Positions 10,526 to 27,709 of a stretch of DNA of 64,000 nucleotides are shown piece by piece (positions within the stretch are counted from its first letter, which is position 1; each line of letters starts with the position of its first letter). Position numbers and translations under genes: made by a program. The notes under the pieces are model-generated. The model saw only the letters and a program-made list of their open reading frames with translations. It was not told the origin of the DNA and made no database searches. Source of the stretch: Patescibacteria group bacterium (lineage in GTDB: Bacteria; Patescibacteriota; Patescibacteriia; SG8-24; DYFX01); assembly GCA_041659045.1 (NCBI GenBank), contig JBAZZB010000004.1, forward strand, positions 28,129 to 92,128. The letters are read 5' to 3'.

Positions 10526-12028
10526 ATGAATAAAATTTTCACGCTCGCCGCGCTCACGGTGCTTGTCGGAGCTGGTTGCGGGATCACCGCGACCCCCAAA
10601 GGATCGGCACCGGTGATCAAGGGAACGAATCCAACCGTTATCGAAACCGGTGTCGTGCGCGAATATACGCTGACGGCCGATGAGACGCGTTGGGAGCTGC
10701 GCCCAGATTTTTCGACGGAGGTCTTCGCCTACAACGGCCAAGTGCCTGGCCCCGAAATCCGGGTGAAGCGCGGCGATCGCGTGAAAGTGACGCTCGTGAA
10801 CAAGTTGGAGGATTCCACAACGATTCATTGGCATGGCATCCGCGTGCCCGCCAGCATGGATGGATTTCCGGGTATCAGCCAGGAACCCGTCGCGCCAGGT
10901 GGAACATTTGTCTACGAGTTCGTTGTGCCTGACGCGGGCACCTTCTTCTACCACTCGCACGTTGATACGGATGAGCAGGTTGATCGTGGTTTGTATGGTC
11001 CGTTTATCGTCGAACCATCCGAAGGCGCGGTCTCCGATGTTGTTGTTGCCTTGGACGACTGGCTCCTCGATGATTCCGGTAATCGCTTAGACACGGAGCG
11101 CACGTACGAAGAAACGCAAACCGATAACGTGCTCGACTCTGTGTCCGAGGCGACGCGTCCTTCGACGGGGGGAACGCAGCACATGATGGCTGATGGTTCG
11201 GTGATGGGCGGCATGCAGCATGAAGGGATGATGGATCATAATTTTGATCCGAGGATCAATGGCCGCTACGGCAACATCTTGGCTGTAAACGGCAAGATGG
11301 GTTCGGCAATCGCGAGGGTGGAAGTGCCGAAGGGAGGCACGCGCCTGCTTCGCTTCATCAACGCCTCGAACTCGATGACGCATGAATTGAAAGCGGACGA
11401 CGGACGCTTGCTCGAAATCGTCGCGGTCGACGGCACGTCGCTCGCAAAACCCGTGCGTACCGGCACGCTGACCATCTCGCCCGCCAAGAGATTCGACGTG
11501 CTGCTTCGCGATCAAGACGGGAAAGCTTGGAGCTTGGTCGAAAAGCGGGCGACGGGGGAACTGCGCATTCCGATCACGATTGGCGGAGAAGCGGGCGTTG
11601 AACCGTCGTTTACGACGGACGCTCCAACCCCGCCCGATCTTCTGGCGCGCAGGCCGGACGCGATCATTTCTGTCGGTACAGATCGCATGATGGATCCGAC
11701 GACCTGGACGGTGAACGGTCTGCCGTACGACATGATGGGCGACAATGATCCGCTCGCGACCTTCCGCGTCGGCACTTGGGTCAAGATGCGTTTCATGAAC
11801 GGCACGATGATGGCGCATCAGATGCATTTGCACGGCGTTTTCATGACGGTCATTGCGCGCGATGGCAAGCCGGTCACAGAGCAGTATCGCCAAGATGTCA
11901 TTGTCGTGCGCCCGAACGAATCGGTCGATATCGCCGTACTCGCCGACAACCTCGGTGACTGGGTGATGCACTGCCACAACCTTGAACATGAAGAGCACGG
12001 GCTGATGGCAAAAATTCGTGTTCAATAA
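10526..12028 (+). CDS. multicopper oxidase (CueO/CopA-like), lipoprotein-type signal
   Basis: HWHGIRVP, HSH, and HCHNLEHEEHGLM copper-binding motifs. N-terminal LVGAGCG lipobox. Confidence 0.85.
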   Translation: MNKIFTLAALTVLVGAGCGITATPKGSAPVIKGTNPTVIETGVVREYTLTADETRWELRPDFSTEVFAYNGQVPGPEIRVKRGDRVKVTLVNKLEDSTTIHWHGIRVPASMDGFPGISQEPVAPGGTFVYEFVVPDAGTFFYHSHVDTDEQVDRGLYGPFIVEPSEGAVSDVVVALDDWLLDDSGNRLDTERTYEETQTDNVLDSVSEATRPSTGGTQHMMADGSVMGGMQHEGMMDHNFDPRINGRYGNILAVNGKMGSAIARVEVPKGGTRLLRFINASNSMTHELKADDGRLLEIVAVDGTSLAKPVRTGTLTISPAKRFDVLLRDQDGKAWSLVEKRATGELRIPITIGGEAGVEPSFTTDAPTPPDLLARRPDAIISVGTDRMMDPTTWTVNGLPYDMMGDNDPLATFRVGTWVKMRFMNGTMMAHQMHLHGVFMTVIARDGKPVTEQYRQDVIVVRPNESVDIAVLADNLGDWVMHCHNLEHEEHGLMAKIRVQ

Positions 12029-12037
12029 AGAGACGCT

Positions 12038-12064
12038 TCAAAACCCGCTTCGGCGGGTTTTGTT
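12038..12064 (+). terminator. Rho-independent terminator (caaaacccgcttcggcgggttttg)
   Basis: GC stem with ttcg loop and a T-run, followed by a tatact -10-like box for the next gene. Confidence 0.7.
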
Positions 12065-12071
12065 ATACTGA

Positions 12072-14159
12072 TTGCATATGATGTACGTTTGCCCGATGCA
12101 TCCGGAAGTACAGCGCGACGCTCCGGGACGCTGCCCCGAATGCGGCATGGAACTCGTGCCAATGAAAGAAAAGAAGGAGCACGGAGCTCACGCCGCTTCG
12201 AACAAACACGAGGGTCACTCGACAATGCAGTTCGCTCGCAAGTTTTGGATCTGTCTTGTGCTGACGGCGCCAGTCGTTCTGTATTCCGAAATTGTTCCGA
12301 CGCTTTCCGGTTGGCGTCCGCCGGCGTTTCCGGGATCGATGTATATTCCAGCACTTCTCGCCTCGATCGTTTTCTTTTGGGGCGGAGGCGTGTTTTTGCT
12401 CGGTGCCTTCCGGGAGCTGCGCGGCCGTAAGCCCGGCATGATGACGCTCATCGCTTTGGCAGTCGTCGCGGCCTATACATTTAGCGTCTGGTCGACGTTC
12501 ACGGGTGGAATGGAGACTCTGTACTGGGAGCTGACGACGCTGATCACGGTCATGCTGCTCGGTCACTGGCTCGAGATGCGCGCCGTGAGTAGTACGAGCG
12601 GTGCTTTAAAAGAGCTGGCAAAACTTCTACCCGATGAGGTCGAGGTTTTAAGAAACGGCACGCCGACCAAGATCCCGCTTTCTGAATTGCGCGAGAATGA
12701 TTTTTTTATTGTGCGTCCAGGCGGCAAAATCGCCGCTGATGGCGTCATCGAAGACGGCGAGTCCGACGTGAACGAATCAATGGTCACGGGCGAGTCGCGT
12801 CCGGCGAAAAAAACGAAGGGAAACCCTGTCATCGCCGGTACGGTGAACGGAGACGGAGCGCTCACGATCCGCGTGTCCCAGCTTGGTGACAAGACGTTTC
12901 TTGCCGGCGTCATGCGCTTGGTTGCGGATGCTCAAGCTTCAAAATCCAAACTACAAATTTTGTCCGACCGCGCGGCGATGGTTCTGACCTATGTCGCTGT
13001 TGCTGTCGGCCTCACGACGCTCATCGCTTGGTGGATTGCCTCTGGCCCGGCACTTGCCGTCGAGCGCATGGTTTCGGTTCTGGTTATCGCCTGCCCGCAC
13101 GCGCTCGGTCTGGCCGTGCCGCTCGTCGCTTCGATCTCAACCATGATGGCGGCAAAAAACGGCTTCTTGGTGAAGCAGCGACTCGCTCTCGAGGCCGCAC
13201 GCAACGTCGACTTGGTGCTCTTTGATAAAACAGGAACCCTCACAAAAGGGGAGTATGGCGTCGATCGCGTCTGGGGACTCGAGATTTCCGAAGATGAAAC
13301 CTTGGCGCTCGCGGCGGCCGTCGACGCGTCATCCGAACATGTTGTTGCGCGAGCGATTGTCGCACGCGCCAAAGAACGCGGCCTCACGATTCCTGTGGCG
13401 GAAGCATTCCAGCGCGTGCCGGGGAAAGGTGTTGCAGCGCGCGTGGCCGGACGCGAGATCGCTGTCGGCGGCGAGACGGCCATTACGACTCAATCAAGAA
13501 CATCAGTAGCTTGGAATGACATCAAAGCGGAGAACGCCAAGGGTAAGACGATTGTCTATGTGCTCGAAGGCGAGAAAATTCTCGGAGCTTTCGCCTTAGC
13601 CGACGTGATTCGTCCGGAATCACGGGAAGCGATTGCTTCGTTGAAAGCGATGGGTGTGAACGTCGGCATGGTCACCGGCGATTCCGAAGATGTCGCGGCC
13701 TGGGTAGCAGCCGAACTCGGTATCGACGAGGTCTTCGCGCGCGTCCTGCCGGGTGACAAAGCCGGTAAGGTACAGATGTTGCAGGAGAAGGGGCACGTTG
13801 TCGCAATGGTTGGCGATGGTATCAACGACGCCCCCGCGCTTACGCAGGCCGATCTTGGTATTGCTATTGGCGCCGGCACAAACGTTGCTGTCGAATCCGC
13901 AGGCATCATCCTGGTCAAAAATGATCCACGCGACATTCCAAAAATCATCCGTCTTTCGCGCCTGACCTATTCCAAGATGATGCAAAATCTTTTTTGGGCG
14001 ACGGGGTACAACATTGTCGCGATGCCGCTCGCGGCCGGGGTCCTGGCTTCTCGCGGGATTTTGCTGCAACCGGCCTTGGCCGCCGTTTTCATGTCGCTGA
14101 GCACGGTCATCGTGGCGGTGAACGCCCTACTCTTGCGCAGAAAGAAGCTTTCGGCATGA
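12072..14159 (+). CDS. copB: CopB-like P1B-type ATPase (CPH motif) with N-terminal CPMHP/CxxC heavy-metal-binding domain
   Basis: 695 aa. N-terminus YVCPMHPEV...GRCPECGMELVP, TM motif IACPHALGLAVP (CPH, P1B-3 type), [17 protein letters not shown]. Confidence 0.85.
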   Translation: MHMMYVCPMHPEVQRDAPGRCPECGMELVPMKEKKEHGAHAASNKHEGHSTMQFARKFWICLVLTAPVVLYSEIVPTLSGWRPPAFPGSMYIPALLASIVFFWGGGVFLLGAFRELRGRKPGMMTLIALAVVAAYTFSVWSTFTGGMETLYWELTTLITVMLLGHWLEMRAVSSTSGALKELAKLLPDEVEVLRNGTPTKIPLSELRENDFFIVRPGGKIAADGVIEDGESDVNESMVTGESRPAKKTKGNPVIAGTVNGDGALTIRVSQLGDKTFLAGVMRLVADAQASKSKLQILSDRAAMVLTYVAVAVGLTTLIAWWIASGPALAVERMVSVLVIACPHALGLAVPLVASISTMMAAKNGFLVKQRLALEAARNVDLVLFDKTGTLTKGEYGVDRVWGLEISEDETLALAAAVDASSEHVVARAIVARAKERGLTIPVAEAFQRVPGKGVAARVAGREIAVGGETAITTQSRTSVAWNDIKAENAKGKTIVYVLEGEKILGAFALADVIRPESREAIASLKAMGVNVGMVTGDSEDVAAWVAAELGIDEVFARVLPGDKAGKVQMLQEKGHVVAMVGDGINDAPALTQADLGIAIGAGTNVAVESAGIILVKNDPRDIPKIIRLSRLTYSKMMQNLFWATGYNIVAMPLAAGVLASRGILLQPALAAVFMSLSTVIVAVNALLLRRKKLSA

Positions 14160-14181
14160 CGGTCGGGTATACTGTTTCGAC

Positions 14182-14814
14182 ATGCTACGCGGAACTTCCA
14201 CAGAATTGATCCGCACGACAGCGAAGCTTGTCTTCGGAGCTTTCCTGTTCTTGTTTGTGGCGTCCTTCTTGGCTTTGCCGTGCATGCAGAGTGATAGCGG
14301 ACTCTTCGTCTCGTTAACGAATGGCTCCTCGGCCGCGTTGAGTGTCGCGCGTTCGTCACAAGCTGTAAAAGCACTATCACTCCAAGGGCCGCTATCGAAG
14401 GTGGCGCTTGGTACACCCTTGTTCGTAACGCAGATGCCAGGAGCGACAGTCCCTACCGCTTCCGTACAATTCGCGAGCGCGTGGCGTACTACTTCAACGC
14501 TCACGGCTTCCGCGGAAATGCAGCCGTCGCCTCGTACCGTGTACCGACAACCGTTCGCGGCGGCCTCGTGCGTGGAACATAAGCTCTTCAAACCACGTTT
14601 GAATATCTTTAAAGCGTTCGAAGTGCCTGCTGCCGAGCACCCACTGCGTTTCGCTGTGGTGCTTGTCGTCACGCTCGGCTTCGGCATCGTTGCGACGTTC
14701 TCCCGTCATACGCCGGTTCGAGTACGCCCTGGTTGGATACGACTCAGATCCCTTCCGTTCGCGTGCTCCGATCCTCCGCGTCTGCCGTACTTCGCCGCAC
14801 AACGTGACGCCTGA
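14182..14814 (+). CDS. low-confidence hypothetical secreted/membrane protein (Ser/Thr/Ala-rich)
   Basis: 210-aa ORF with hydrophobic N-terminus, but weaker GC3 bias than neighbours. A competing minus ORF 14127..14687 exists. Coding status uncertain. Confidence 0.3.
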   Translation: MLRGTSTELIRTTAKLVFGAFLFLFVASFLALPCMQSDSGLFVSLTNGSSAALSVARSSQAVKALSLQGPLSKVALGTPLFVTQMPGATVPTASVQFASAWRTTSTLTASAEMQPSPRTVYRQPFAAASCVEHKLFKPRLNIFKAFEVPAAEHPLRFAVVLVVTLGFGIVATFSRHTPVRVRPGWIRLRSLPFACSDPPRLPYFAAQRDA

Positions 14815-14858
14815 CCGCCCTTTGGCTGTTTCCGCTCCGTATTATTCTGAATGATTCT

Positions 14859-15620
14859 ATGGATTCCAACGAAAAGTTTTCGATGACGCTCTCGGTTAAG
14901 CAGATCTTCCTCGCAGGTGTCGCCGCCGGCGTGCTCGGCGTGACCGCACTCGGTTTCATTCTCATGGTTTCCAAGGGCATCGACACGAGCTCTTGGTTCT
15001 CCGGTTCTGCGCGCGCTCCGCTCGCGGCCGCTCCGTCCGGCGCCGCTCCGACCGGTGACGACAACGGCCAGCAGGTTGGCGAAGTCGCTCCGATCAACGA
15101 CGAAGACCACATGCGCGGCGACAAGAACGCCGAGATCACGCTTCTCGAGTACTCGGACTTCGAGTGCCCCTTCTGCTCTCGCTTCCACCCGACGCTCGTT
15201 CAGGCGTTGAACGAATACAAGGGTAAGGTTCGCTGGGTCTACCGCCACTTCCCGTTGAACTCGATTCACCCGAACGCGCAGAAAGCAGCCGAAGCCTCCG
15301 AATGCGCCAGCGAACAGGGTAAGTTCTGGGAGATGGCCGACAAGATGTTCGAGAAGCAGGCTGCGGGCCTCTCTCTCACGCAGCTTTCCGCGCTTGCCAA
15401 GGAAGCGGGCGTGCGTGACATCAAGAAATTCGATTCATGCGTTTCGAGCGGCAAGTACGCCCAGCTCGTCGCAGCCGACCTCGCCAGTGGCGAAGCGGCC
15501 GGCGTGACCGGTACGCCGGGAACGATCGTGATCGGCAAAGACGGTTCGAAGCAGCTCATCCCGGGCGCGCTTCCGTACGACTCCGTCAAGCAGATCATCG
15601 ACTCGATGCTCGCGTCCTAA
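14859..15620 (+). CDS. DsbA-family thiol:disulfide oxidoreductase, membrane-anchored
   Basis: TM anchor, then the thioredoxin CxxC motif FECPFCSRFHP, and the DsbA-like pattern with cis-Pro region TGTPG. Confidence 0.75.
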   Translation: MDSNEKFSMTLSVKQIFLAGVAAGVLGVTALGFILMVSKGIDTSSWFSGSARAPLAAAPSGAAPTGDDNGQQVGEVAPINDEDHMRGDKNAEITLLEYSDFECPFCSRFHPTLVQALNEYKGKVRWVYRHFPLNSIHPNAQKAAEASECASEQGKFWEMADKMFEKQAAGLSLTQLSALAKEAGVRDIKKFDSCVSSGKYAQLVAADLASGEAAGVTGTPGTIVIGKDGSKQLIPGALPYDSVKQIIDSMLAS

Positions 15621-16351: not shown

Positions 16352-16511
16352 ACAGGCAGGTTGTGGGTTAACGATACGAGAGGTCGCACCATAGAGGAAA
16401 AACGTAAAGACGTCAAGGCCAGCGGGTCACGATCGACATATCAAGCGTAGGCCGCGACCGTCAGGGCAGCATCCTTGAAGCATGGGCACTCTTCCATTAG
16501 GATACCTTTAT

Positions 16512-19160
16512 ATGCAGAAGCCGGAATTGGAAAAAGCCTACGACGCCTCCAAAGTGGAGGATGCGATCTATCGCCGCTGGGAAGCGAGCGGCTTTTTCAA
16601 TCCCGACAAACTGCCGGGTGGCAAGAAGAAGAAACCGTTCACGATCGTTCTGCCACCGCCGAACGCCACGGGCGTTCTCCATGTTGGTCACGCCACGATG
16701 CTCGCGCTGGAAGATTTGATGATTCGTTACAAGCGCATGCGCGGCTTCGCTTCGCTTTGGATTCCCGGCACCGATCACGCTTCGATCGCCACCCAGAACA
16801 AAGTCGAAAAGCTGATTCAAGAGAGCGAAAAGAAATCGCGCCACGATCTCGGCCGCGCCGAATTTTTGAAGCGCGTCGAGACGTTCGTCAAAGGTTCTCA
16901 AAACACGATTCGCAATCAAATCCGCAAAATGGGCTCGTCGATCGATTGGTCGCGCGAAGCCTACACGCTCGACAAGCCCCGCTCCGAAGCGGTGATCGAA
17001 ATGTTCAACCGCATGTACGAAGATGGTCTCGTGTACCGCGGCGAGCGCGTCGTGAACTGGTGCGTACGTTGCACCTCAACACTCGCGGACGACGAAGTTG
17101 AATACAAGGCGCAAAAAGCCAAGCTCTACTTCCTGAAGTACGGCCCATTTAGTGTCGCGACCACGCGCCCAGAAACGAAACTCGGCGACACCGCCGTGGC
17201 CGCCAACCCTTCCGACGAACGCTACAAGAGCTGGATCGGAAAAACGTTTGAACTCAACTGGGGTGAGGGTACCAAGCCGCTCACGATCCGCGTTATTGGC
17301 GATCACGAAGTCGACATGAAGTTTGGTTCAGGCCTCATCGGCGTCACGCCCGCCCACTCCGCGGTCGACTTCCGTATGGCCGAGAAGAACAAGCTCCCGA
17401 TCATCAAAGTGATCGGTGAAGATGGTCGCATGCTTGCGTCGGCAGGAAAGTACAAGGACATGACCGTTCTCGAAGCGCGTCATGCCTTCGTGAAAGACCT
17501 CGAAGCTCAAGGCTTGATCGAGAAGATCGAAGAGATCGATAACAATCTTTCGGCGTGCTACCGCTGCTCGACCGCCATCGAACCGCTCACCTCGCTCCAA
17601 TGGTTCGTCGACGTGAACAAAAAGATCAAAGGCCGCGGCAAGTCGCTCAAGGAGCTGTCGCTCGACGCCGTCAAAAAGAGCGGGGTCAAGATCATTCCCG
17701 ATCGTTTTGAGAAGGTCTACTACCATTGGATGGAGAACCTTCGCGATTGGTGCGTCTCTCGCCAGATTTGGTTCGGCCACCGCATTCCGGCCTGGCACTG
17801 CGAGAACGGCCACGTAAGCGTCGCGCGCAAAATGCCGACGAAGTGCACTGCGAAAGGTTGTGCTTCGAAAAAACTCCGCCAGGACGAAGACACGTTCGAT
17901 ACGTGGTTCTCTTCCGGCACCTGGACGTTCTCGACGCTCGGTTGGCCCAAGAAGACGCCGGACCTGAAACGCTTCCATCCGACAGATGTGTTGGAGACGG
18001 GTTACGACATCCTGTTCTTCTGGGTCGCCCGCATGATTTTGATGACGGAGTATGCCATGAAGCAGGTGCCGTTCAAAACCGTCTACCTGCATGGCCTCGT
18101 CCGCGACGAGCAGGGAAGGAAGATGTCGAAGTCGCTTGGCAACGTGCTCGACCCGCTCGACGTCATTCCGAAATACGGCACCGACGCCGTCCGTTTGTCG
18201 CTGGTCCTCGGCACGGCGCCTGGCGCCGATGCCAAGGTTTGGGAAGACAAGATCGCCGGCTATCGCAACTTCACCAACAAGCTCTGGAACATCTCGCGCT
18301 TCGTACTGACGAGCGTTTCAAAAGTTTCGCGCGTCTCGAAGAAGCCAACAGCCAAGACGCTCTCGGATAAATGGATTCTCGCACGTCTTGATTCCGTGGC
18401 TGCGCAGGCGACGTCCTCGATTGAGAAATTTGATTTCTCACCGGCGGGCGAATTGCTGCGCGACTTCACCTGGACGGAATTCGCTGACTGGTATTTGGAG
18501 ATCGCCAAGATCCAGATGCAAGACGCGAAACTTAAGGCGTCCACGGAAAAGATCTTGCTCTACGCGCTTGAGACTATTCTGAAACTTTGGCATCCCTACA
18601 TGCCGTTCGTTACCGAAGCAATCTGGGACATTCTTTCGGGCAACGCCAAAGGCAAGAAATTCCTCATGATCGAAGCGTGGCCGAAAGCGAAAGCCGTTGC
18701 AGCTCCGAAAGAATTCGCCTTGCTTCAAGAAATCATCGGCGCGATCCGCAACGTGCGCAGCGAATACAAAGTTGAACCCGCCAAAAAAGTTGACGCGACG
18801 ATCGTGGCCGGAGCGAAAGCAAAACTTTTGAAGGAAAACGCCGCCGTGATCGCTACACTTGCCCGCATCGAAACGCTGACGATTCTCCCGAAAGGGGAGA
18901 AACCAAAAGACGCGGCTTCAACAATGGCTGGCGGCGTCGAAATCCACCTTCCGCTTGCCGGCATGGTGGATATGGCCAAGGAGAAAGCTCGACTCGAAAA
19001 GGAGAAGGAGAATCTCACGGGCTTCGTGAAGAACCTGGAAGCCAAACTCTCGAACCCCGGTTACACCGACAACGCGCCGAAAGAGGTGGTCGAGAAAACA
19101 CGTCAGATGCTCGCCGAGAAGAAAGAAGAATTGAAGAAAATTGAAACCGCCCTGGGTTGA
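16512..19160 (+). CDS. valS: valine--tRNA ligase
   Basis: HIGH-type PNATGVLHVGHA, KMSKS, and a C-terminal coiled-coil tail typical of ValRS. The start is taken at ATG 16512 (MQKPELEKAYD). Confidence 0.9.
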   Translation: MQKPELEKAYDASKVEDAIYRRWEASGFFNPDKLPGGKKKKPFTIVLPPPNATGVLHVGHATMLALEDLMIRYKRMRGFASLWIPGTDHASIATQNKVEKLIQESEKKSRHDLGRAEFLKRVETFVKGSQNTIRNQIRKMGSSIDWSREAYTLDKPRSEAVIEMFNRMYEDGLVYRGERVVNWCVRCTSTLADDEVEYKAQKAKLYFLKYGPFSVATTRPETKLGDTAVAANPSDERYKSWIGKTFELNWGEGTKPLTIRVIGDHEVDMKFGSGLIGVTPAHSAVDFRMAEKNKLPIIKVIGEDGRMLASAGKYKDMTVLEARHAFVKDLEAQGLIEKIEEIDNNLSACYRCSTAIEPLTSLQWFVDVNKKIKGRGKSLKELSLDAVKKSGVKIIPDRFEKVYYHWMENLRDWCVSRQIWFGHRIPAWHCENGHVSVARKMPTKCTAKGCASKKLRQDEDTFDTWFSSGTWTFSTLGWPKKTPDLKRFHPTDVLETGYDILFFWVARMILMTEYAMKQVPFKTVYLHGLVRDEQGRKMSKSLGNVLDPLDVIPKYGTDAVRLSLVLGTAPGADAKVWEDKIAGYRNFTNKLWNISRFVLTSVSKVSRVSKKPTAKTLSDKWILARLDSVAAQATSSIEKFDFSPAGELLRDFTWTEFADWYLEIAKIQMQDAKLKASTEKILLYALETILKLWHPYMPFVTEAIWDILSGNAKGKKFLMIEAWPKAKAVAAPKEFALLQEIIGAIRNVRSEYKVEPAKKVDATIVAGAKAKLLKENAAVIATLARIETLTILPKGEKPKDAASTMAGGVEIHLPLAGMVDMAKEKARLEKEKENLTGFVKNLEAKLSNPGYTDNAPKEVVEKTRQMLAEKKEELKKIETALG

Positions 19161-19195
19161 CACCAGGCGGTTTTTTTGTGTAGCGTTCCATTCAG
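19146..19195 (+). repeat. repeated hairpin element, copy 1 (ccgccctggGTTGACAccaggcgg + T7 + gtgTAGCGTtcc): terminator with embedded -35-like box
   Basis: GC stem CCGCC/GGCGG with TTGACA in the loop, a T-run, then TAGCGT 17-18 nt after TTGACA. This family recurs after each of the next genes. Confidence 0.6.
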
Positions 19196-19204
19196 GAGGT
19201 TCCA

Positions 19205-19765
19205 ATGCTGCTCTTTCTCATCGTGCTTGGGCTCGTTGCCATAGTCGTGCTCGTGGTCACGCTGCTCCGCCTCGGAGCTCGGAAGCGTACGTTCGAGCAC
19301 GCCGAGGAAACAAAGAAGAAGTTGAACGAACTGCTTCGTGCCGTCATGCAGTGGCAGGGCAGTGAATACGACTTCGTGCCGTACGACAGCGACCGTAAGT
19401 TCGACGATCGGAATCGTGGGTATCGTTCGCTCACACTGCGTCCCGACGACAAGGTGGCCTGGGACATCACGACCGATCCGCAGATGAAGTGCCGCGTGAA
19501 GCTTCGGTGGAAGGACGCGCAGGGTGAAGACAGAGAGTTCTGCTACCCGAGTGCCATGGGCTTTTCCGAGGAGCAGTGGCTGAAGACGATGGTCGACATC
19601 GTGCTCTGGTACGTACACGAGATGCCGCCGCCGCGCACGCATGAAGAGTGGATGGCCAAGCGCCGCCAGGAGACCGCGGCAACAATCGCTCGCGCCGAGG
19701 CTCGCAGCGTCGCAGAAGGCGACAGCTTCTCCTCGCTCGAAGATCCTTTGGATGACATGGACTAA
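19205..19765 (+). CDS. small bitopic hypothetical protein A (N-terminal TM + charged soluble domain)
   Basis: 186 aa, RBS aggagg, hydrophobic N-terminus LLFLIVLGLVAIVVLVVTLL. Confidence 0.6.
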   Translation: MLLFLIVLGLVAIVVLVVTLLRLGARKRTFEHAEETKKKLNELLRAVMQWQGSEYDFVPYDSDRKFDDRNRGYRSLTLRPDDKVAWDITTDPQMKCRVKLRWKDAQGEDREFCYPSAMGFSEEQWLKTMVDIVLWYVHEMPPPRTHEEWMAKRRQETAATIARAEARSVAEGDSFSSLEDPLDDMD

Positions 19766-19806
19766 CCGCCGGGATTGACCCTAGGCGGTTTTTTTGTTAT
19801 CGTCCC
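19766..19806 (+). repeat. repeated hairpin element, copy 2 (ccgccgggaTTGACCctaggcgg + T7 + gtTATCGTcc)
   Basis: Same architecture and near-identical flanks as copy 1. Confidence 0.6.
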
Positions 19807-19830
19807 CGCACGTTCATTGTGGAGGAGCTC

Positions 19831-20433
19831 ATGTCAAAATCGCGATTCGTGTGGCCGTCCTGGTTTTCTTCAGCGCTTTCCTGCGCGACGCTGCTCTGGT
19901 TGACCTACTTCTTCTGGCCCGCTTGGTACATCCCGGCAGCGGGCGCCGGACTCGCAATCGTCGTGGGCCTTGTCATGGATTGGCGCCGAGGTCAGAGGGC
20001 GAAGCAAGAAGGTTGGAAGCTGCTCGAGCCGATGTTCGATGAGTTGATCCGCGCCGTTGAATTCCGCACGCGGCCGCTCGATGCGATCGTTCTCTACAAC
20101 GCGCGTCGGCGGAACGGCAATCTTCTCACGCACCAGCTCCAAGTGCAGATCGAATCACGCATCTACGCGCTCCGGACGATGATGGAGGTTGAAGGGCGAC
20201 ACGCCGGGCACATCAATGTCCGTTTCACCGTGCAAGGCCCCGGCGATTTCAAAGCGCAGGCGTACTATCCAGACGTCTATCGCGCCGCACGGCCCTTGCC
20301 GCGCCTCGCCGAACAGCTGGAGAAACTTCAATCGCTCATTGGAAATGCCAGCGCGTACGAGAAACGTCGCAAACGCCTCAGCGCGCTCGGCATCGACATC
20401 CCCCTTCGCACCGACACGCCGCTCGATATTTGA
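19831..20433 (+). CDS. small bitopic hypothetical protein B
   Basis: Roughly 200 aa, RBS ggaggag with 4-nt spacer, Trp-rich TM region. Confidence 0.6.
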   Translation: MSKSRFVWPSWFSSALSCATLLWLTYFFWPAWYIPAAGAGLAIVVGLVMDWRRGQRAKQEGWKLLEPMFDELIRAVEFRTRPLDAIVLYNARRRNGNLLTHQLQVQIESRIYALRTMMEVEGRHAGHINVRFTVQGPGDFKAQAYYPDVYRAARPLPRLAEQLEKLQSLIGNASAYEKRRKRLSALGIDIPLRTDTPLDI

Positions 20434-20460
20434 CCTCGGGCGGTTTTTTCTTTAGGTTGA
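20418..20460 (+). repeat. repeated hairpin element, copy 3 (ccgctcgatatTTGACCtcgggcgg + T6 + ctttaggtt)
   Basis: More divergent family member. Confidence 0.45.
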
Positions 20461-20487
20461 ACCCACGTATCGAACAAAGGAGCCATC

Positions 20488-21003
20488 ATGCCGCCCGTGG
20501 TCCAATTGCTCATCGGCTTAGCCGTCCTTGCCGCCCTTTTCTTCCTCGGTCGTCGTCTCAGGCTGCATCTCGCCGAACGAGAATTCCGCGCGCCGCTTGG
20601 CACGAATCTCGATTGGCTGATCGGGCAGTTGAGATGTTACGACACGGTGCCGCTCCAGGATCTGTACATCACGCACGCGGGTGCGCATCCCGGCGTCGAC
20701 GATCCGAACGACGTTTCTACGCACTACGAAGTGTATCCTCGTGGAAACCACCGCTTCTCCTTTTCGCGCATCGGTCATGGTGAGAAGGTTTGGTATCGCG
20801 TCGATCGCTGGTGCAAGAATCCACTGGACGCCTCGAACTTTCCGCCGTGGGGTGTTGGCGCATGCCGCAGCTCCTGGTTCGTGGAACGAATGAAAACCCT
20901 CTGTGACCTGCTCGATCGCTATCCACGTGAGAGGACGCTCTCCTCGCGCGCTCAATGCGTCATGGACGGCAAACCTGATCCGTTTCCTCACACTCCGGCT
21001 TGA
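20488..21003 (+). CDS. small bitopic hypothetical protein C
   Basis: 171 aa, RBS aaaggag, N-terminal TM. Confidence 0.6.
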   Translation: MPPVVQLLIGLAVLAALFFLGRRLRLHLAEREFRAPLGTNLDWLIGQLRCYDTVPLQDLYITHAGAHPGVDDPNDVSTHYEVYPRGNHRFSFSRIGHGEKVWYRVDRWCKNPLDASNFPPWGVGACRSSWFVERMKTLCDLLDRYPRERTLSSRAQCVMDGKPDPFPHTPA

Positions 21004-21031
21004 CCTAAGCCGGTTTTTTTGTTAGCGTCCG
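20994..21031 (+). repeat. repeated hairpin element, copy 4 (ccggcTTGACCtaagccgg + T7 + gtTAGCGTcc)
   Basis: Perfect 7-bp stem with TTGACC spanning the loop. The tail is identical to copy 1. Confidence 0.6.
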
Positions 21032-21057
21032 AGCGACCACGTACGAAAGGATCGCGC

Positions 21058-21633
21058 ATGCGTTTCATCACGGCACTGCTCATTTTCCTCGGTGTCATCG
21101 GTCTGCCGATCATGCTTCTCTGGCAGCACCAGCGGCATGTGCACCGTGCGCATGAAGCGGCGGTCAAAGCGCTCCTGTCGCGCTATATCGATGGAATCAT
21201 CCGTCTGACGGTCGTCGGTCCGCCGGCCTTTCACGAGATTACGATGATCGAGAATACACTCGGCGGTAAGATCATACGTCGCCTGTATCGCATCTTCCTG
21301 AGGCCAGCTCTCGGTTTCACGATCGAGGCATGCTGGGAGAAGAATCGTTGGGAGTACTCGGCGCGTTTTTTCGACCCGCTCGAAGAACGCTATCAGGAAT
21401 TTCCGATCGTTCGGAACTACAGGTTTCACACGCCCTGGTTCGAAGCCAAGGCCGAGACGCTGATGCAAGTTCTTGAGGCCTACATGCGTCATCCGCTCGT
21501 GAAGTCGCGCGAAGGCGGGGCCTTTAGCAGCGACTTCGATCGCGTCGCAGCTCTTTTCAACGTCACAAAGTGGAATACCATCGACTACGAGGCTTTCTTC
21601 CAGTCCGCGCGAGACCTCCGACCGGCTGCTTGA
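21058..21633 (+). CDS. small bitopic hypothetical protein D
   Basis: 191 aa from ATG 21058, RBS aaagga, N-terminal TM. Confidence 0.6.
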   Translation: MRFITALLIFLGVIGLPIMLLWQHQRHVHRAHEAAVKALLSRYIDGIIRLTVVGPPAFHEITMIENTLGGKIIRRLYRIFLRPALGFTIEACWEKNRWEYSARFFDPLEERYQEFPIVRNYRFHTPWFEAKAETLMQVLEAYMRHPLVKSREGGAFSSDFDRVAALFNVTKWNTIDYEAFFQSARDLRPAA

Positions 21634-21660
21634 CGCAAGCCGGTTTTTTTGTTCAGATAA
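21621..21660 (+). repeat. repeated hairpin element, copy 5 (ccggctgcTTGACGcaagccgg + T7 + gttcagat)
   Basis: Same stem sequence as copy 4. Confidence 0.55.
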
Positions 21661-21673
21661 AAAAGGAAGGAGC

Positions 21674-22207
21674 GTGCGCCCCATGACGTTTTTCCACTGG
21701 TTCAAATGGTTGGTCATCGTCGTTTTCTTCGTTGCGTTCTTCATCGTGAGCGTGATTCTGTTGAGCCGTCGCCTCGAGAAAAAACGATTGGCGAAGGTCT
21801 CGACACCACCGGGGCAGGATCGGTTGCTCTACGACCGCCTCGCCGCAGAGATGTTGGCTTACGCGTCCGAGAGTGGCGTGGTCTATCACCAAGAGATCGA
21901 GTCTCGTTTTGGCGAGCACGCTTTCGTACGTACGACCTCCGATCGGTTTGGCAAGAAGCGCTACGTTGAGCGCCAACGCTGGTACAACGGACGAATTCAA
22001 TACACGATCTGTCGATACGACAACAGCTCGAGCACGCCGTCGGACTCCGCGATCTGCGAGCAAGCGGTGTCTTCGTCCGCTAGGGACGTGTACTACGACA
22101 GCATTCGCGATATTCGCGAACACGGCTCAAAGATCTCGTTTCGGGACGGTGATGGGCTGAACTGCCAGTTGCGCGTTCCGCCGAAGCCTGTCGAATCTCG
22201 CGTCTAA
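21674..22207 (+). CDS. small bitopic hypothetical protein E
   Basis: 177 aa, RBS aaggaagga, GTG 21674 or ATG 21683, N-terminal TM. Confidence 0.6.
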   Translation: MRPMTFFHWFKWLVIVVFFVAFFIVSVILLSRRLEKKRLAKVSTPPGQDRLLYDRLAAEMLAYASESGVVYHQEIESRFGEHAFVRTTSDRFGKKRYVERQRWYNGRIQYTICRYDNSSSTPSDSAICEQAVSSSARDVYYDSIRDIREHGSKISFRDGDGLNCQLRVPPKPVESRV

Positions 22208-22245
22208 CTCCTCCATGCTTCGCGCTGGAGGTTTTTTATTGACGC
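22208..22245 (+). terminator. terminator hairpin (cctccatgcttcgcgctggagg + T6) followed by TTGACG
   Basis: Different stem sequence but the same layout: hairpin, T-run, TTGAC(G). Confidence 0.5.
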
Positions 22246-22293
22246 GTCGCCCCGGCTCGTGAGAGGTTGGATGCAACCTGACGGGAGGTTCGT

Positions 22294-22677
22294 ATGCGTG
22301 TCCTGACCTGGTTGCTCGGTAGCCTCGTCGCTGCCGCGACGGCGGCCTATGTCGCGAAACAGCACACAAAGAAAAGCACCGTCGATCAGTTCTTGGGTGC
22401 TATCGAGGCCAAACGTGTCGCGGTGCATGCCGAGTGGGATAGCATTCCCGCTCGCAACATTCGCGAGCAGTGGTTCGAAGGCATTGCTGATGGCGAGCCG
22501 TTCCGTTTCAGTGCCCGCACCGACAAGTCCAGCACCGAATGGGGCTTCGCCCTCGACTGGAAGGGGGAGACGACGTTCGAACGTTGGAACATCTTAAAGC
22601 AAGGTCGTACGCGCACCCTCGCTGCCATTCATCTCGCCCTCAAGCGCCTGCCCGTCCAAGATCGGCAGGAGCACTGA
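22294..22677 (+). CDS. small bitopic hypothetical protein F
   Basis: 127 aa, RBS gggagg, N-terminal TM. Confidence 0.6.
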   Translation: MRVLTWLLGSLVAAATAAYVAKQHTKKSTVDQFLGAIEAKRVAVHAEWDSIPARNIREQWFEGIADGEPFRFSARTDKSSTEWGFALDWKGETTFERWNILKQGRTRTLAAIHLALKRLPVQDRQEH

Positions 22678-22679
22678 CA

Positions 22680-22720
22680 ACCCATGATGGGTTGCTTTTT
22701 TTGTCTTGACATGCGCGCTT
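22680..22720 (+). terminator. terminator hairpin (caacccatgatgggttg + T7) followed by TTGACA
   Basis: Perfect palindrome around ATGAT, a T-run, then ttgaca. Confidence 0.55.
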
Positions 22721-22779
22721 TTTTCTGCAAATGTGCTTGCGCGCCTTTCCACCGCTACCCTCCACAAGGAGCCGCTCTG

Positions 22780-23199
22780 ATGCCACAGATCTTCCTCGGC
22801 ATTTTCCTGATCCTGCTTATCGTCGTGCCCGTGTTCGTTTACGACCGCCGTCGCGCTGTCGAGGATGGGCGACGTCATCTGCTCGACATGCTCCGTCGCA
22901 CACCCGATGACAGTCTGCACCTTGTTCGCTTCGGGAAGTTCAGGGCCAACGACCGCATCAGTATGGTGCTCCTCGGCTTCTTCAAGAAGTCGTTCCATCA
23001 CTACCATCTGCGTATCGAGACGACTGGCGTGAAGAAGCGTTATCGTCTCCAACACTCGCTTGATTGGCCTGGTCCGGGATGGCTGACGAAAGAGCATCAA
23101 GGACAGATTGGCGACGAGGTCTGGACGGCCACGCTCGCGCTCATCTCCGCCGCGACCGATCTCCACAACCTCGTACGTGACGAACAGGCCGCTGCCTGA
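22780..23199 (+). CDS. small bitopic hypothetical protein G
   Basis: 139 aa from ATG 22780, RBS aaggag, N-terminal TM. Confidence 0.55.
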   Translation: MPQIFLGIFLILLIVVPVFVYDRRRAVEDGRRHLLDMLRRTPDDSLHLVRFGKFRANDRISMVLLGFFKKSFHHYHLRIETTGVKKRYRLQHSLDWPGPGWLTKEHQGQIGDEVWTATLALISAATDLHNLVRDEQAAA

Positions 23200-23211
23200 A
23201 TCGTCTCACGG

Positions 23212-23238
23212 ACAGCCCTTCGGGGTTGTTTTTTTATG
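23212..23238 (+). terminator. terminator hairpin (cagcccttcggggttg + T7)
   Basis: GC stem, ttcg loop, T-run, just before tyrS. Confidence 0.6.
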
Positions 23239-23262
23239 CCTTAAACGCTAAAGTCTCTCCAT

Positions 23263-24447
23263 ATGAAAGCCCCGTCTGACGCCGCAATTGAACGACTCTT
23301 GGGACATCAAGTCGCCGACGTAATCGTTCGTGAGAGCCTTGAGAAGAAGCTCCGCTCCGGCAAGAAACTCCGCATCAAGTTCGGAGCCGACCCGTCGCGC
23401 CCGGATCTCCACCTCGGACATGCTGTCGTGCTCCGCAAACTGCGCGAGTTCCAAGACCTCGGTCACACGGTCATCTTTTTGATCGGTGACTTTACGGCAC
23501 TGATCGGCGACCCGACGGGCAAATCCAAAACGCGCCCAATGCTCTCCTCGAAGGAGATCAAGGAAAACGCGAAAACCTACATGAAGCAGGTGGGCAAGGT
23601 TTTGAATGTGAAGAAAGGCGAGCTTCGCTACAACTCGGAATGGCTGGGCAAGATGAAGGCCGCCGATTTTGTCTCGCTCTGCGCCCAGTTCACCCTCGCC
23701 CGCATCACTGAGCGCGACGACTTCTCAAAGCGCTTGGCTGCCAAAACAGATGTGTACATGCACGAGCTGCTCTACCCCATGCTCCAAGCCTACGATTCGA
23801 TTGCCTTGAATGCCGATGTCGAACTCGGCGCGACCGATCAAACCTTCAACCTCCTCGCTGGGCGTGCGCTCATGAGTAAGAAGGAGCTCGTTCCTCAAGA
23901 TATTCTGACGACGCCGATTTTGGTCGGCACCGACGGCAAGGAAAAGATGTCGAAGTCGCTCGGCAACTACATCGGTCTGACGGACTCCGCCGAAGACATG
24001 TTCGGAAAAACGATGTCCGTGCCGGACTCCGCGCTGCCGAACTGGCTCGAACTCGCCGTGGATTACTCGAAAGAAGAGATCGCCGCCGAGAACGCCGCGC
24101 TCAAGAAGGGGGAGAATCCGCGCGACGTGAAGATGCGTCTCGCGAAGAGGCTCGTCTCCCTCTATCACGATAAGAAAGCGGCCGACAAAGCCGAAGAAGG
24201 TTTCAAGGCACGTTTCCAAAAGGGGGAGATGCCGACGGAGATGAAAAGCTGGAAGCTGCCGAAGCCGATGAAACTGTACGAAATCGTCGCTTCCGCGTTC
24301 GCTATGTCCAACTCGCAGGCACGCCGCGATATCGAAAGCGGTGGCGTGAAGATTGATGGCGCGGCCGTAAAAAATCCGATGCAGGAAATCGCCAAAGGCG
24401 GGGTTGTCCTTCAGAAGGGCAAGCTGCATTTCGTGAAGATTGTCTGA
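23263..24447 (+). CDS. tyrS: tyrosine--tRNA ligase (class I, with C-terminal S4-like domain)
   Basis: HIGH motif DLHLGH, KMSKS, 394 aa, C-terminal S4-like ARRDIESGGVKIDG. Confidence 0.8.
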   Translation: MKAPSDAAIERLLGHQVADVIVRESLEKKLRSGKKLRIKFGADPSRPDLHLGHAVVLRKLREFQDLGHTVIFLIGDFTALIGDPTGKSKTRPMLSSKEIKENAKTYMKQVGKVLNVKKGELRYNSEWLGKMKAADFVSLCAQFTLARITERDDFSKRLAAKTDVYMHELLYPMLQAYDSIALNADVELGATDQTFNLLAGRALMSKKELVPQDILTTPILVGTDGKEKMSKSLGNYIGLTDSAEDMFGKTMSVPDSALPNWLELAVDYSKEEIAAENAALKKGENPRDVKMRLAKRLVSLYHDKKAADKAEEGFKARFQKGEMPTEMKSWKLPKPMKLYEIVASAFAMSNSQARRDIESGGVKIDGAAVKNPMQEIAKGGVVLQKGKLHFVKIV

Positions 24448-24448
24448 C

Positions 24449-26161
24449 ATGTATTTGATTGAAGAACTGAAAGCCTCGCTTGCGAAGGCGCTTTCGAAGG
24501 CGACGGCTGAAGATATCACGGCAGATGCTCTGGAATACCCCGAGCTGTCCGAAAACGGTGACCTCGCGTTTCCGTGCTTTTCATTAGCAAAAAAACTGAA
24601 GTCCGCTCCGCCGAAGATCGCCACAGACCTCACGGCAGAAGTAAAACTTCCGGAGGGTTTCGAGCGTGTCGAAGCCAAGGGGCCGTATCTCAACTTTTTC
24701 TTTGACCGCTCCTCACTCGTTGAAGAGGTGGCCTCTGCCGTTCTCAAAGCCGGCGAAGCCTATGGCGACCGCAAGGGTGATCATGAAAAAGTCATGGTCG
24801 AATACATCAGCCCGAACAACAACAAGCCATTGCACCTTGGCCACGTGCGTAATGGCTTAGTTGGCGAGTCACTTTCGAATCTCTACGAATCGCAGGGAAA
24901 GAAAGTCACGCGCGCACTGCTCTTGAACGACCGCGGTCTCGCAATTGCCAAAGCCATGGTCGCCTACATGAAGTGGGGGAATGATGCGACGCCAGACACG
25001 CTCGGCAAAAAGGGCGATCACTATCTCGGCGACCTGTACGTCCTGTACGAACAGGAGGCGAAAAAGGACGAGAATTTGGAAAAAGCGGCCCACGAAATCA
25101 TTCGCAAGTGGGAAGCCGGCGACGCTGAGACGCGCGCTCTTTGGAAAACCATGAGCACCTGGTGCGAGGCCGGACAGCACGACACCTACAAACGCTTCGG
25201 CTTCCGTTTTGACGTCGAGTACAAGGAGTCGGAAATCTATCAAGAAGGAAAAGACATCGTCGAACTCGGTTTGAAAAAAGGCGTCTTCAAAAAAGACGAA
25301 ACAGGCGCCGTCTTCGCCGATCTTGAAGAGTACAAACTGCCGAACAAAATCGTGCTTCGGTCCGACGGCACCTCGCTCTACATCACGCAGGATCTCTACC
25401 TCGCCAAAAAGAAATTTGATGAGGAAGGAATCGATGCGTCGGTCTACGTTGTCGGCAACGAACAGAATTTGCACTTCCAGCAACTCTTCAAAATTTTGGA
25501 GCTGCTCGGTTTTGAGTGGGCGAGCAGGGCGAAACATCTTTCTTACGGCTACGTCACGTTGCCCGAAGGCCGCATGAAGTCGCGCGAAGGCACCGTCGTC
25601 GATGCGGACGACTTGCTTTCCGCGCTCGAAACGGACGCGGCGATGGAAATCAAGCAGCGCCACGCGACGTTGCCTGACGACGAGGTTGTCCGCCGTGCGC
25701 ACTCCGTTGCACTGGCCGCCGTGAAGTTTTATTTCCTCGAAGTCGATATTTCTTCGGACATGGTCTACGACCCGAAAGCCTCGCTTTCGTTCACGGGCAA
25801 GACGGGCCCGTATCTCCAGTACATGCACGCCCGCATCCAGTCGCTCATCAAGAAGGCTGAGTTGGAATCAAAGCCTGAGGGCGAAGGGCGCAATCTTGCC
25901 TCAGAGGAGTTCGCGCTGGCCTTCACGCTCGCGCGTTTCCCAGAGGCCGTCCATCGCGCCGCTGAACAGGACCGCCCATCGCTTGTGGCCGCCCATGTCT
26001 ACGAGACAGCCAAGGCGATCGCCGCGCTTTACGAGAATGCCCCCGTGCTTTCGGCCTCAAAAGAGGATCGCAAAGCACGTTTGAGCTTGCTTGAAGCCTC
26101 CGCCGTCGTCTTGAAACGGGGGACGGAACTCCTAGGTTTCTCGGTTCCTGATGAAATGTAG
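24449..26161 (+). CDS. argS: arginine--tRNA ligase
   Basis: PLHLGHVRN HIGH-type motif, roughly 570 aa with a C-terminal DALR-like anticodon-binding region. An alternative TTG start at 24440 overlaps the tyrS stop. Confidence 0.85.
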   Translation: MYLIEELKASLAKALSKATAEDITADALEYPELSENGDLAFPCFSLAKKLKSAPPKIATDLTAEVKLPEGFERVEAKGPYLNFFFDRSSLVEEVASAVLKAGEAYGDRKGDHEKVMVEYISPNNNKPLHLGHVRNGLVGESLSNLYESQGKKVTRALLLNDRGLAIAKAMVAYMKWGNDATPDTLGKKGDHYLGDLYVLYEQEAKKDENLEKAAHEIIRKWEAGDAETRALWKTMSTWCEAGQHDTYKRFGFRFDVEYKESEIYQEGKDIVELGLKKGVFKKDETGAVFADLEEYKLPNKIVLRSDGTSLYITQDLYLAKKKFDEEGIDASVYVVGNEQNLHFQQLFKILELLGFEWASRAKHLSYGYVTLPEGRMKSREGTVVDADDLLSALETDAAMEIKQRHATLPDDEVVRRAHSVALAAVKFYFLEVDISSDMVYDPKASLSFTGKTGPYLQYMHARIQSLIKKAELESKPEGEGRNLASEEFALAFTLARFPEAVHRAAEQDRPSLVAAHVYETAKAIAALYENAPVLSASKEDRKARLSLLEASAVVLKRGTELLGFSVPDEM

Positions 26162-26177
26162 ACAACGATATTGTTCA

Positions 26178-26210
26178 TCCCCTGAGGGCACTTTGCCCTC
26201 ATTTTTTTTA
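26178..26210 (+). terminator. Rho-independent terminator (tgagggcactttgccctca + T8)
   Basis: Perfect 7-bp stem and a long T-run. Confidence 0.7.
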
Positions 26211-26272
26211 CGGGGTACAATGGGGAAAGAAATTCACAGCCTGCTACAGGCGTTAACTATTTTCGTGGAGGT

Positions 26273-26734
26273 ATGTTCAAGAATGAACGGGACGTGGCCG
26301 CGGCAAACGAAACCGAAACCGTCATCGCGCCGTCCGTGCGCGTCGAAGGCGACTTCGTCAGCGAAGGTAACGTGCGCATTGAGGGCATGGTGACCGGTTC
26401 GATTGCTACGGAGCGCGACCTGATCGTCGGCGAAGCCGCCAAGATCACCGCGAACGTCCAGGCCCGCAACGGCACCATTGCCGGCGAGCTCCATGGCAAC
26501 CTCCGCGTCTTCGATCGCCTCGAACTTTCCTCGACCGCTCGCGTCTACGGTGACATCCAGGCGAAAGTCTTGTCGGTCGCTCCGGGCGCCGTCATGCGCG
26601 GACAGCTTGTGATCGGCATGGACGTCCAGCCGGTGAACAAGAAAGAAGAAATCATGGAAGAGCGGGCAGAAGGCGCAATGCGCCCCGTGCGCTCGGCTCG
26701 CGAGAAGAAGATCGAGGAAATCCTCCAGCAATAA
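26273..26734 (+). CDS. bactofilin-family cytoskeletal protein
   Basis: Repetitive beta-helical G-x-V/I-x-G pattern (VEGDFVSEGNVRIEGMVTGSI...RVYGDIQAKV) typical of DUF583/bactofilin. Confidence 0.7.
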   Translation: MFKNERDVAAANETETVIAPSVRVEGDFVSEGNVRIEGMVTGSIATERDLIVGEAAKITANVQARNGTIAGELHGNLRVFDRLELSSTARVYGDIQAKVLSVAPGAVMRGQLVIGMDVQPVNKKEEIMEERAEGAMRPVRSAREKKIEEILQQ

Positions 26735-26749
26735 TCAGCAGACAGCAGG

Positions 26750-27529: not shown

Positions 27530-27532
27530 CAA

Positions 27533-27558
27533 AAGACCCAGGTATTACCTGGGTCTTT
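27533..27558. terminator. bidirectional terminator (aagacccaggtattacctgggtctt)
   Basis: Perfect 10-bp stem between the + CDS and the minus-strand tRNA. Confidence 0.7.
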
Positions 27559-27560
27559 TG

Positions 27561-27647
27561 TGGTGCGGTCGGAGAGACTTGAACTCTCAAGCCCTTGCGG
27601 GCGCTACCACCTCAAGGTAGTGCGTCTGCCAATTTCGCCACGACCGC
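27561..27647 (-). tRNA. tRNA-Leu (anticodon GAG), long variable arm
   Basis: Reverse complement GCGGTCG-TG-GCGA-AATTGGCAGA-CGC-A-CTACC-TTGAGGT-GGTAG-CGCCCGCAAGGGC-TTGAG-AGTTCAAGTCTCT..CGACCGC-A-CCA. Confidence 0.8.
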
Positions 27648-27709
27648 TCTCTTGGGAACGGGGGTACTATATGCCGCCCCGGCAGCTTTGGCAAGGCCAC
27701 CCTCTAATC

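Follow-up and report, generated by a model that had tools for sequence, protein, structure and literature searches.

What does a short repeat do that lies at one gene junction after another, and how did it come to be copied there? The question is raised by the interval between valS, the gene for valyl-tRNA synthetase, and tyrS in a Patescibacteria group bacterium (assembly GCA_041659045.1), where a run of small genes on one strand, P1 to P7, is accompanied by five copies of a GC-rich repeated element, the first at the end of valS. The window referred to throughout is the stretch of 64,000 nucleotides (nt) from 28,129 to 92,128 on the forward strand of contig JBAZZB010000004.1. A first-pass annotation of this DNA had read the repeat as a single cassette that terminates one gene and re-initiates the one after it, and had added that it may be a mobile or recombinogenic repeat that assembled the array. 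We consider it quite probable that the five repeats act as Rho-independent terminators and that their DNA overlaps the promoter of the gene that follows. Such 'promoter-coupled terminators' have been described and validated in vitro and in vivo (Fletcher et al. 2026, bioRxiv 10.64898/2026.08.19.745784), and on this reading the elements are a clear new example of that arrangement and not a new mechanism. All the promoter and terminator evidence presented here consists of sequence anatomy, motif enrichment, conservation, compensatory stem changes and paralogy.

Terminator and promoter signals of the five elements

The five copies lie in register (Table 1) and share the signature cTTGAC-N4-GSCGG-T5-7-GTT. 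Each forms a hairpin of 19-25 nt, with a stem of 7-9 base pairs (bp) and a short loop, and a T-tract follows. The first-pass annotation had described five GC stem-loop copies with TTGAC in the loop or 3' arm, and all five were found in place. Its statement that every copy has T7 and a TAGCGT or TATCGT hexamer has to be amended: T7 is present in copies 1, 2, 4 and 5 and T6 in copy 3, and a hexamer is present in four of the five, matching the two sequences given in copies 1, 2 and 4 and reading TAGGTT in copy 3. In copy 5 there is no TAnnnT 16-18 nt after TTGACG, and GTTCAGATAAAA comes next. Folded with their flanks the copies have energies of -11.2 to -17.9 kcal/mol, at z-scores of about -3.0 to -3.4, and among 200 shuffled controls 0-3 fold as stably; the isolated hairpins reach -10.5 to -12.6 kcal/mol. 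The pattern TTGAC-N8-10-T6 is seen seven times in the window, where 0.22 would be expected, and the five copies account for five of these sites.

For comparison we assembled 34 copies from the window array and the arrays of ten relatives, using as criteria TTGAC, a T-run after it and a hairpin, and ignoring the hexamer. The valS-tyrS loci of relatives compared with the window are labelled L002-L009, L016 and L022. All five window copies have the layout of an intrinsic terminator, placed at the upstream gene's 3' end and on the strand of the downstream gene. The clade copies likewise have their hairpins at the ends of open reading frames (ORFs), followed by T5-7, and in at least 30 of the 34 a compact hairpin ends beside the T-tract. 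At stem positions 3, 4, 6, 7 and 8 several pair types (GC, CG, TA and AT) occur across the set and pairing is retained; the outer pairs nearest the T-tract are fairly conserved, as CCGCC/GGCGG or CCGGC/GCCGG. The pair types were counted after folding each copy, an approach that replaced RNAalifold, which found no consensus on a MAFFT alignment of 32 copies, loop and arm lengths being different and the alignment ungapped. The elements are also better conserved than their surroundings, being 76-83% identical between the window and L007, where flanking coding sequence is 62-65% and leaders are 45-64% identical. Positions 20993-21023 (copy 4) are 97% identical to L002 over 31 nt, next to coding sequence that is unalignable. 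Among the Rfam 15 covariance models only tRNAs reach the gathering threshold in the window, and a search of 19100-23300 gave no match at E <= 1.

The window has 15 sites with the pattern TTGACN-N17-TAnnnT, where 0.64 would be expected. Judged by eye, these sites precede start codons, several with a Shine-Dalgarno sequence and many with a TGn extended -10. The motif is the predicted promoter consensus of this genome, and in the form TTGACN-17-(TGn)TAnnnT it is usable as a promoter consensus for these genomes. When the 34 copies are anchored on TTGAC, T is found at +23 in 30, A at +24 in 24 and T at +28 in 31, and positions +25 to +27 vary freely. In a sigma-70 -10 box T-12, A-11 and T-7 are conserved and the middle bases are free, so the pattern kept in the copies is the one predicted for a -10 box. 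The spacing of the hexamer, on which the first-pass annotation had let its proposal depend, is conserved in additional copies, TAnnnT being present 17-18 nt after TTGACN in 27 of the 33 copies from arrays. TTGACN lies within the loop or an arm in the five window copies and in 34/34 clade copies. Its site in the hairpin shifts: it may take up the whole loop, begin in the 5' arm and end in the loop, or extend from the loop into the 3' arm. Its distance to the T-tract and hexamer is fixed. This suggests that the constraint acts on the DNA and not on the RNA loop. The predicted leaders are 11-30 nt long and have a Shine-Dalgarno sequence.

The model we propose is as follows. In the RNA, the GC hairpin with its U6-7 would end the transcript of the upstream gene. 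In the DNA of the same segment, TTGACN in the hairpin loop or 3' arm would be the -35 box, the 17-nt spacer would be made up of the 8-nt 3' arm, the T-tract and two to three more bases, and TAnnnT just past the T-tract would be the -10 box, placing the predicted transcription start about 15 nt past the predicted transcript end. valS and P1-P4 would then each be a separate transcription unit, with intergenic spacers of 44-65 nt between the genes. We infer termination, initiation and any polymerase interference at the copies from these signals. The composite scheme would apply to copies 1-4 only. The elements before the F5-family genes of L002, L006, L007 and L008, like copy 5 before the window's F5 gene, have no -10 and retain the hairpin, TTGAC and T7, and copy 5 is probably a terminator only, with a vestigial -35. 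The view that one cassette ends a transcript and starts the next thus finds comparative support for copies 1-4 and not for copy 5.

Stop codons within TTGAC and readings without a promoter

In copies 1, 3, 4 and 5 the TGA of TTGAC is the in-frame stop of the upstream ORF, a feature overlooked in the first-pass annotation. The 5' arm of the hairpin is therefore coding sequence. Copy 2 comes after a TAA stop, that of P1. Among the clade copies TGA serves as the stop in about half, 16 being confirmed against the list of array genes; an automated count of 19/34 takes in spurious long open frames. We infer that a ribosome at this TGA would cover the 3' arm of the hairpin. In E. coli, according to PMC4824070, the terminating ribosome almost fully represses a terminator lying a few bp past the gene. 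Close spacing of stop and terminator is common in B. subtilis, where it is read as a sign of uncoupled 'runaway' transcription, and a short stop-to-terminator distance has been taken as an indicator of runaway transcription in B. subtilis and other bacteria (PMC7858274). A paper on purine bias and runaway transcription (PMC13323073) has nothing on the overlap of terminator and stop or on Patescibacteria. The stop in the hairpin loop suggests that transcription and translation may be uncoupled in this lineage, since the terminating ribosome would otherwise block termination.

Several points weigh against the model. Both termination and initiation at the copies are predictions. The -10 hexamers TAGCGT, TATCGT and TAGGTT are weak by E. 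coli standards and the TGn extension is limited to copies 2 and 4. The composite reading does not extend to every member of the family, copy 5 and its counterparts being without a -10. A T4-6 run in the spacer often accompanies promoters of the window, including about half of those that have no hairpin, so a T-tract alone is no proof of a terminator; the T-tract appears also to be a promoter feature in this genome, as Fletcher et al. report. Between transcript end and start the predicted gap is about 15-16 bp, longer than the published mode of about 10 bp, although it falls within the definition of Fletcher et al., in which the transcript 3' end lies at most 35 bp upstream of a start on the same strand. 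Finally, the paralogy evidence used below for the origin of the family comes from shallow alignments and does not reach P5.

The weak hexamers, copy 5 and the shared stop codon would all suit elements that are terminators or attenuators only, with TTGAC and TAnnnT unused, the array read through from a promoter upstream of valS, and TTGAC kept for its stop or by descent. We rejected the stop codon as the cause of TTGAC conservation, as TTGAC is retained also in those copies, roughly half, in which the stop lies upstream of it. A reading as terminators alone also leaves aside the retention of T-12, A-11 and T-7 at a fixed spacing around a variable middle, and the excess of the whole motif across the window, by eye upstream of start codons, and we find it unlikely. 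An inverted repeat over the -35 could instead be an operator, bound by a repressor that co-regulates the array genes. The conserved outer stem pairs would fit this, and Fletcher et al. give a precedent, showing that the palindrome of a terminator can also act as a LexA site. Yet the inner stem sequence, the stem length and the loop size vary freely while pairing is kept, which is the signature of RNA structure and not of protein-DNA contact, and Pfam, PHROGs and PADLOC scans found no regulator gene in the array. An operator is highly improbable on this evidence.

Array genes, other junctions and the origin of the family

The P1-P7 proteins have an N-terminal hydrophobic helix followed by basic residues, and family F1, that of P1, has a conserved acidic C-terminal motif, DDPxDDMD. 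They gave no significant match in Pfam, no match in PADLOC and a single marginal match in PHROGs, of unknown function (E = 0.0015). For P3 there are only three homologues among 5.8 billion proteins, and its AlphaFold model is of low confidence (pLDDT 58.7). Orthologues of the window ValS with 84-94% protein identity come from Patescibacteria/Minisyncoccota (Paceibacter-like) metagenome-assembled genomes. Where ValS is conserved to this degree the array proteins are 25-55% identical, and the array DNA is at most 69% identical to that of relatives, or unalignable, against 78-88% for the flanks. This suggests that the valS-tyrS array is a fast-evolving, lineage-specific island. In more distant Patescibacteria valS and tyrS are adjacent; the interval holds just a 35-codon remnant in L003, a close relative (ValS 93%), and one to seven array genes in other relatives. 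In profile comparisons with hhalign F3 and F4 are paralogous at 96.7% probability (133 columns), F2 and F3 at 94.6% (44 columns) and F1 and F2 at 66%, and a gene pair in L005 is 72-82% identical in nucleotide sequence. The similarity of the F2, F3 and F4 profiles, together with the L005 pair, suggests that at least part of the array was built by tandem duplication.

The copies themselves also record some exchange. Those with clear counterparts, copies 4 and 5 and the element at the end of valS, have as their best match the corresponding copy in another genome. Mean similarity at unconstrained positions is 0.42 within genomes versus 0.40 between them (permutation p = 0.085), not a significant rise, and concerted evolution was rejected as a general rule and kept for L007, L005 and L016. 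The copies on either side of P4 in L007 have in common a hairpin sequence private to L007, matching at 94% over 36 nt, and near-identical repeats are found in L005 (75 nt) and in L016, where two copies agree at every position over 26 nt. L002 and L008 are without P4, and at their one junction between F3 and F5 the sequence looks like the 5' half of window copy 4 fused to the 3' half of copy 5; this hybrid would be the expected outcome of unequal crossing-over between two copies, or of the reverse duplication. These few cases point to occasional recombination or gene conversion between neighbouring copies. On the comparisons made here, the family as a whole is best explained if gene-plus-element units were duplicated in tandem and the element was then kept by selection.

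With duplication and selection to account for the family there is no need to invoke mobility, and we consider it very unlikely that a mobile or dispersed repeat, of the repetitive extragenic palindromic (REP), miniature inverted-repeat transposable element (MITE) or bacterial interspersed mosaic element (BIME) type, was inserted between the genes and assembled the array, being only incidentally terminator- or promoter-like. The recognisable signature of the family would suit such a repeat, and so would the near-identical copies that flank unrelated genes in L005, L007 and L016. The first-pass annotation had pointed to a search for further copies. Array copies were found in the relatives, yet a profile built from the 34 copies and scanned over the 64-kb window and the flanks of the relatives detected no copy beyond the five in the window and only weak promoter sites in the flanks, and 946 kb of valS loci from other taxa contained no composite. 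No terminal inverted repeats or target duplications were seen at the copies, and no transposase or integrase was found among the ten genes scanned on the flanks of the array. Copies with clear counterparts track their neighbouring genes across genomes, similarity within genomes is not elevated, and each copy is placed precisely relative to stop codon, Shine-Dalgarno sequence and ATG. The earlier proposal of a mobile repeat is therefore not upheld. Its alternative, a recombinogenic one, gains from the hybrid junction and the private L007 hairpin, not as a general property of the copies.

An integron-like cassette array, with the hairpins acting like attC sites, might be suspected from the gene content, which differs between close relatives (ValS 93%, cassettes differing or absent), from the hairpin after each gene and from the coincidence of the hybrid junction with the absence of P4. 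We find it scarcely credible. attC sites are about 57-141 nt long and have R''/L''/L'/R' boxes and extrahelical bases, against 19-25 nt for the window hairpins, from which the GTTRRRY core is absent; the conserved parts of the elements are TTGAC, the T-tract and TAnnnT. The ten flanking genes scanned are housekeeping or unannotated and no integrase was found among them, and ordinary homologous recombination over about 30 nt of shared sequence explains the hybrid junction equally well.

A metagenome scan with TTGACNNNNGSCGGTTTTTNNNTTANNNT was set aside, the matches listed being mostly ordinary promoters of unrelated bacteria. A hairpin is present in 16/81 of the matches listed; they show that the architecture exists in other bacteria and are uninformative on its spread within the clade. 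The promoter-like sequence gcgTTGACatccggcggtttttaagTTATTATATA recurs nearly unchanged in L085, L086, L090, L092 and more than 40 other metagenome loci, on contigs of which many are labelled human-gut metagenome; there is no connection to this clade.

Table 1. Elements, genes and junctions of the valS-tyrS region and beyond. Positions are those of the window unless a related locus is named; -35 and -10 boxes and promoters are predicted.
Feature	Position	Strand	Signals and remarks
valS (valyl-tRNA synthetase)	16482-19160	+	ORF and translation; last codons are the 5' arm of hairpin 1
valS TGA stop	19158-19160	+	within TTGACA of copy 1
Copy 1	19147-19186	+	hairpin 19147-19170; TTGACA 19157-19162 in loop; T7 19171-19177
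Copy 1 -10	19181-19186	+	TAGCGT; spacer 18
Copy 1 downstream	19194-19199; 19205	+	Shine-Dalgarno AGGAGG; ATG
P1	19205-19765	+	186 aa; N-terminal transmembrane helix; family F1; C-terminus EDPLDDMD; TAA stop
Copy 2	19766-19803	+	hairpin 19766-19788; TTGACC 19775-19780; T7 19789-19795
Copy 2 -10	19798-19803	+	TGT-TATCGT, extended -10; spacer 17
P2	19831-20433	+	200 aa membrane protein; family F2; TGA inside TTGACC of copy 3
Copy 3	20419-20458	+	hairpin 20419-20443; TTGACC 20430-20435; T6 20444-20449
Copy 3 -10	20453-20458	+	TAGGTT; spacer 17
P3	20488-21003	+	171 aa; family F3; TGA inside TTGACC of copy 4
Copy 4	20995-21028	+	hairpin 20995-21013; TTGACC 21000-21005, TT in stem and GAC in loop; T7 21014-21020
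Copy 4 -10	21023-21028	+	TGT-TAGCGT, extended -10; spacer 17
P4	21058-21633	+	191 aa; family F4; F3 paralogue; TGA inside TTGACG of copy 5
Copy 5	21622-21650	+	hairpin 21622-21643; TTGACG 21630-21635; T7 21644-21650
Elements before F5 genes	21622-21685; L002 12113-12186; L006 ~9444-9525; L007 12505-12576; L008 12510-12575		
P5	21683-22207	+	174 aa membrane protein; family F5
P5-P6 junction	22210-22268	+	hairpin 22210-22231 and T6; adjacent, non-overlapping promoter; conserved in L002, L007, L008
P5-P6 promoter	22239-22244; 22263-22268	+	TTGACG; 18-nt spacer; TGa-GAGGTT
P6	22294-22677	+	small array gene
P7	22780-23199	+	small array gene, last before tyrS
Junction before tyrS	23210-23254	+	hairpin 23210-23228; T7 23229-23235; coupled, different register; conserved in seven relatives
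tyrS promoter	23226-23231; 23249-23254	+	-35 TTGTTT straddling stem end and T-tract; -10 TAAAGT
tyrS	ATG at 23263	+	Pfam
argS-bactofilin junction	26184-26221	+	hairpin 26184-26201; T8; conserved in L002, L007; outside array
argS-bactofilin promoter	26193-26198; 26216-26221	+	TTGCCC in loop and 3' arm; TACAAT; spacer 17

The same design is found at other junctions (Table 1). A coupled arrangement at the argS-bactofilin junction and before tyrS suggests that coupling is common at same-strand junctions in this genome. At the P5-P6, P6-P7 and tRNA-Val junctions the promoter is separate and comes after the terminator. For tyrS a leaderless transcript is predicted, its conserved TAAAGT ending 8 nt before the ATG. 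Elsewhere in the window examples of consensus promoters lie at 625(-), 2663(-)/2700(+), 16416(-), 27710(+), 29554(+), 32219(+), 38814(-)/38830(+) and 41388(-), and at two places, about 2650 and about 38820, promoters form a back-to-back divergent pair.

The annotated genes flanking the array encode a Cu-oxidase, a Cu-ATPase, DsbA, ValS, TyrS, ArgS and bactofilin, and the remainder are unannotated. Upstream of valS, at 10526-15620, these comprise a multicopper oxidase, a copper P-type ATPase with a heavy-metal-binding domain and a DsbA-like thioredoxin. The two sides of the array differ in their relatedness. The DNA of valS (16470-19144) is 88% identical to L002 versus 73-79% to L007, and the tyrS-argS side (23208-27698) is 84-85% identical to L002 and 86% to L007; between the window and L007 the ValS proteins are 68% and the TyrS proteins 93% identical. 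This mosaic identity suggests past recombination with a putative breakpoint in or near the array. The window also has a tRNA-Ile at 3380-3455 with the anticodon TAT (UAU), uncommon in bacteria, and at 46534-60036 a 2955-aa ORF with ORFs of 969 aa and 583 aa after it, all on one strand.

Comparison with known systems

If confirmed, the elements would extend promoter-terminator coupling to Patescibacteria (Candidate Phyla Radiation). Fletcher et al. mapped such sites in A. baumannii, E. coli and B. subtilis and predicted them in six more species, none of them Patescibacteria, and our literature search found no paper in which promoter or transcription-start mapping is joined to the Candidate Phyla Radiation or Saccharibacteria. 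The packing of signals is extreme, as about 40 nt would hold the end of a coding sequence, its stop, a terminator hairpin, the -35 of the next gene, the spacer and the -10. The practical value lies in annotation and in the choice of test cases. A wider role can be imagined, in which the elements would be standard boundaries that make promoter-gene-terminator units, their roughly 30 nt of shared sequence would be the substrate on which such units are gained, lost and exchanged by short-homology recombination, without an integrase, and so would drive the rapid turnover of the array, and the stop in the loop could let ribosome occupancy choose between termination and read-through; we regard this as unlikely.

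Like REP and BIME sequences, the elements are short GC-rich palindromes repeated between co-directional genes. Unlike these they are confined, in the DNA searched, to one array, copies with a clear counterpart match it in position from genome to genome, and the predicted promoter boxes stand in fixed register with the start codon. The array resembles integron attC arrays in its variable run of short co-directional genes, each followed by an imperfect palindrome, and differs from them in having no integrase among the ten genes scanned, far shorter palindromes, a predicted promoter for each gene and paralogous cassettes. With canonical Rho-independent terminators the elements share a GC-rich hairpin of 7-9 bp with a short loop, U6-7 immediately 3' of it and a position at the end of a gene. 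They depart from them in that the window hairpin starts inside coding sequence and has the stop codon in its loop.

The closest resemblance is to the promoter-coupled terminators of Fletcher et al., in which the -10 comes right after the T-tract, the -35 coincides with the DNA of the stem-loop and the T-tract enhances the promoter. In copies 1-4 TAnnnT lies 2-3 nt past the T-tract, in all five TTGACN lies in the stem-loop, and the T-tract would fall within the promoter spacer. Fletcher et al. also find an excess of coupled sites where tandem genes are related in function, with shorter spacers, and in the window too the terminators lie between tandem related genes at short intergenic distances; an N-terminal transmembrane layout is common to the flanking genes, among which F2, F3 and F4 are paralogous. 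The window elements, known from sequence alone, differ from the cases of Fletcher et al. in forming a local sequence family, with four or five consecutive elements in an array of paralogues, in having a near-consensus TTGAC -35 inside the loop, and in embedding the upstream stop in that -35 in four of the five copies. According to Fletcher et al. a promoter-bound polymerase improves termination. The working model that the two sets of elements likely share is that a single DNA segment carries both signals, so that by analogy a polymerase bound at the promoter of the next gene may enhance termination of the gene before it.

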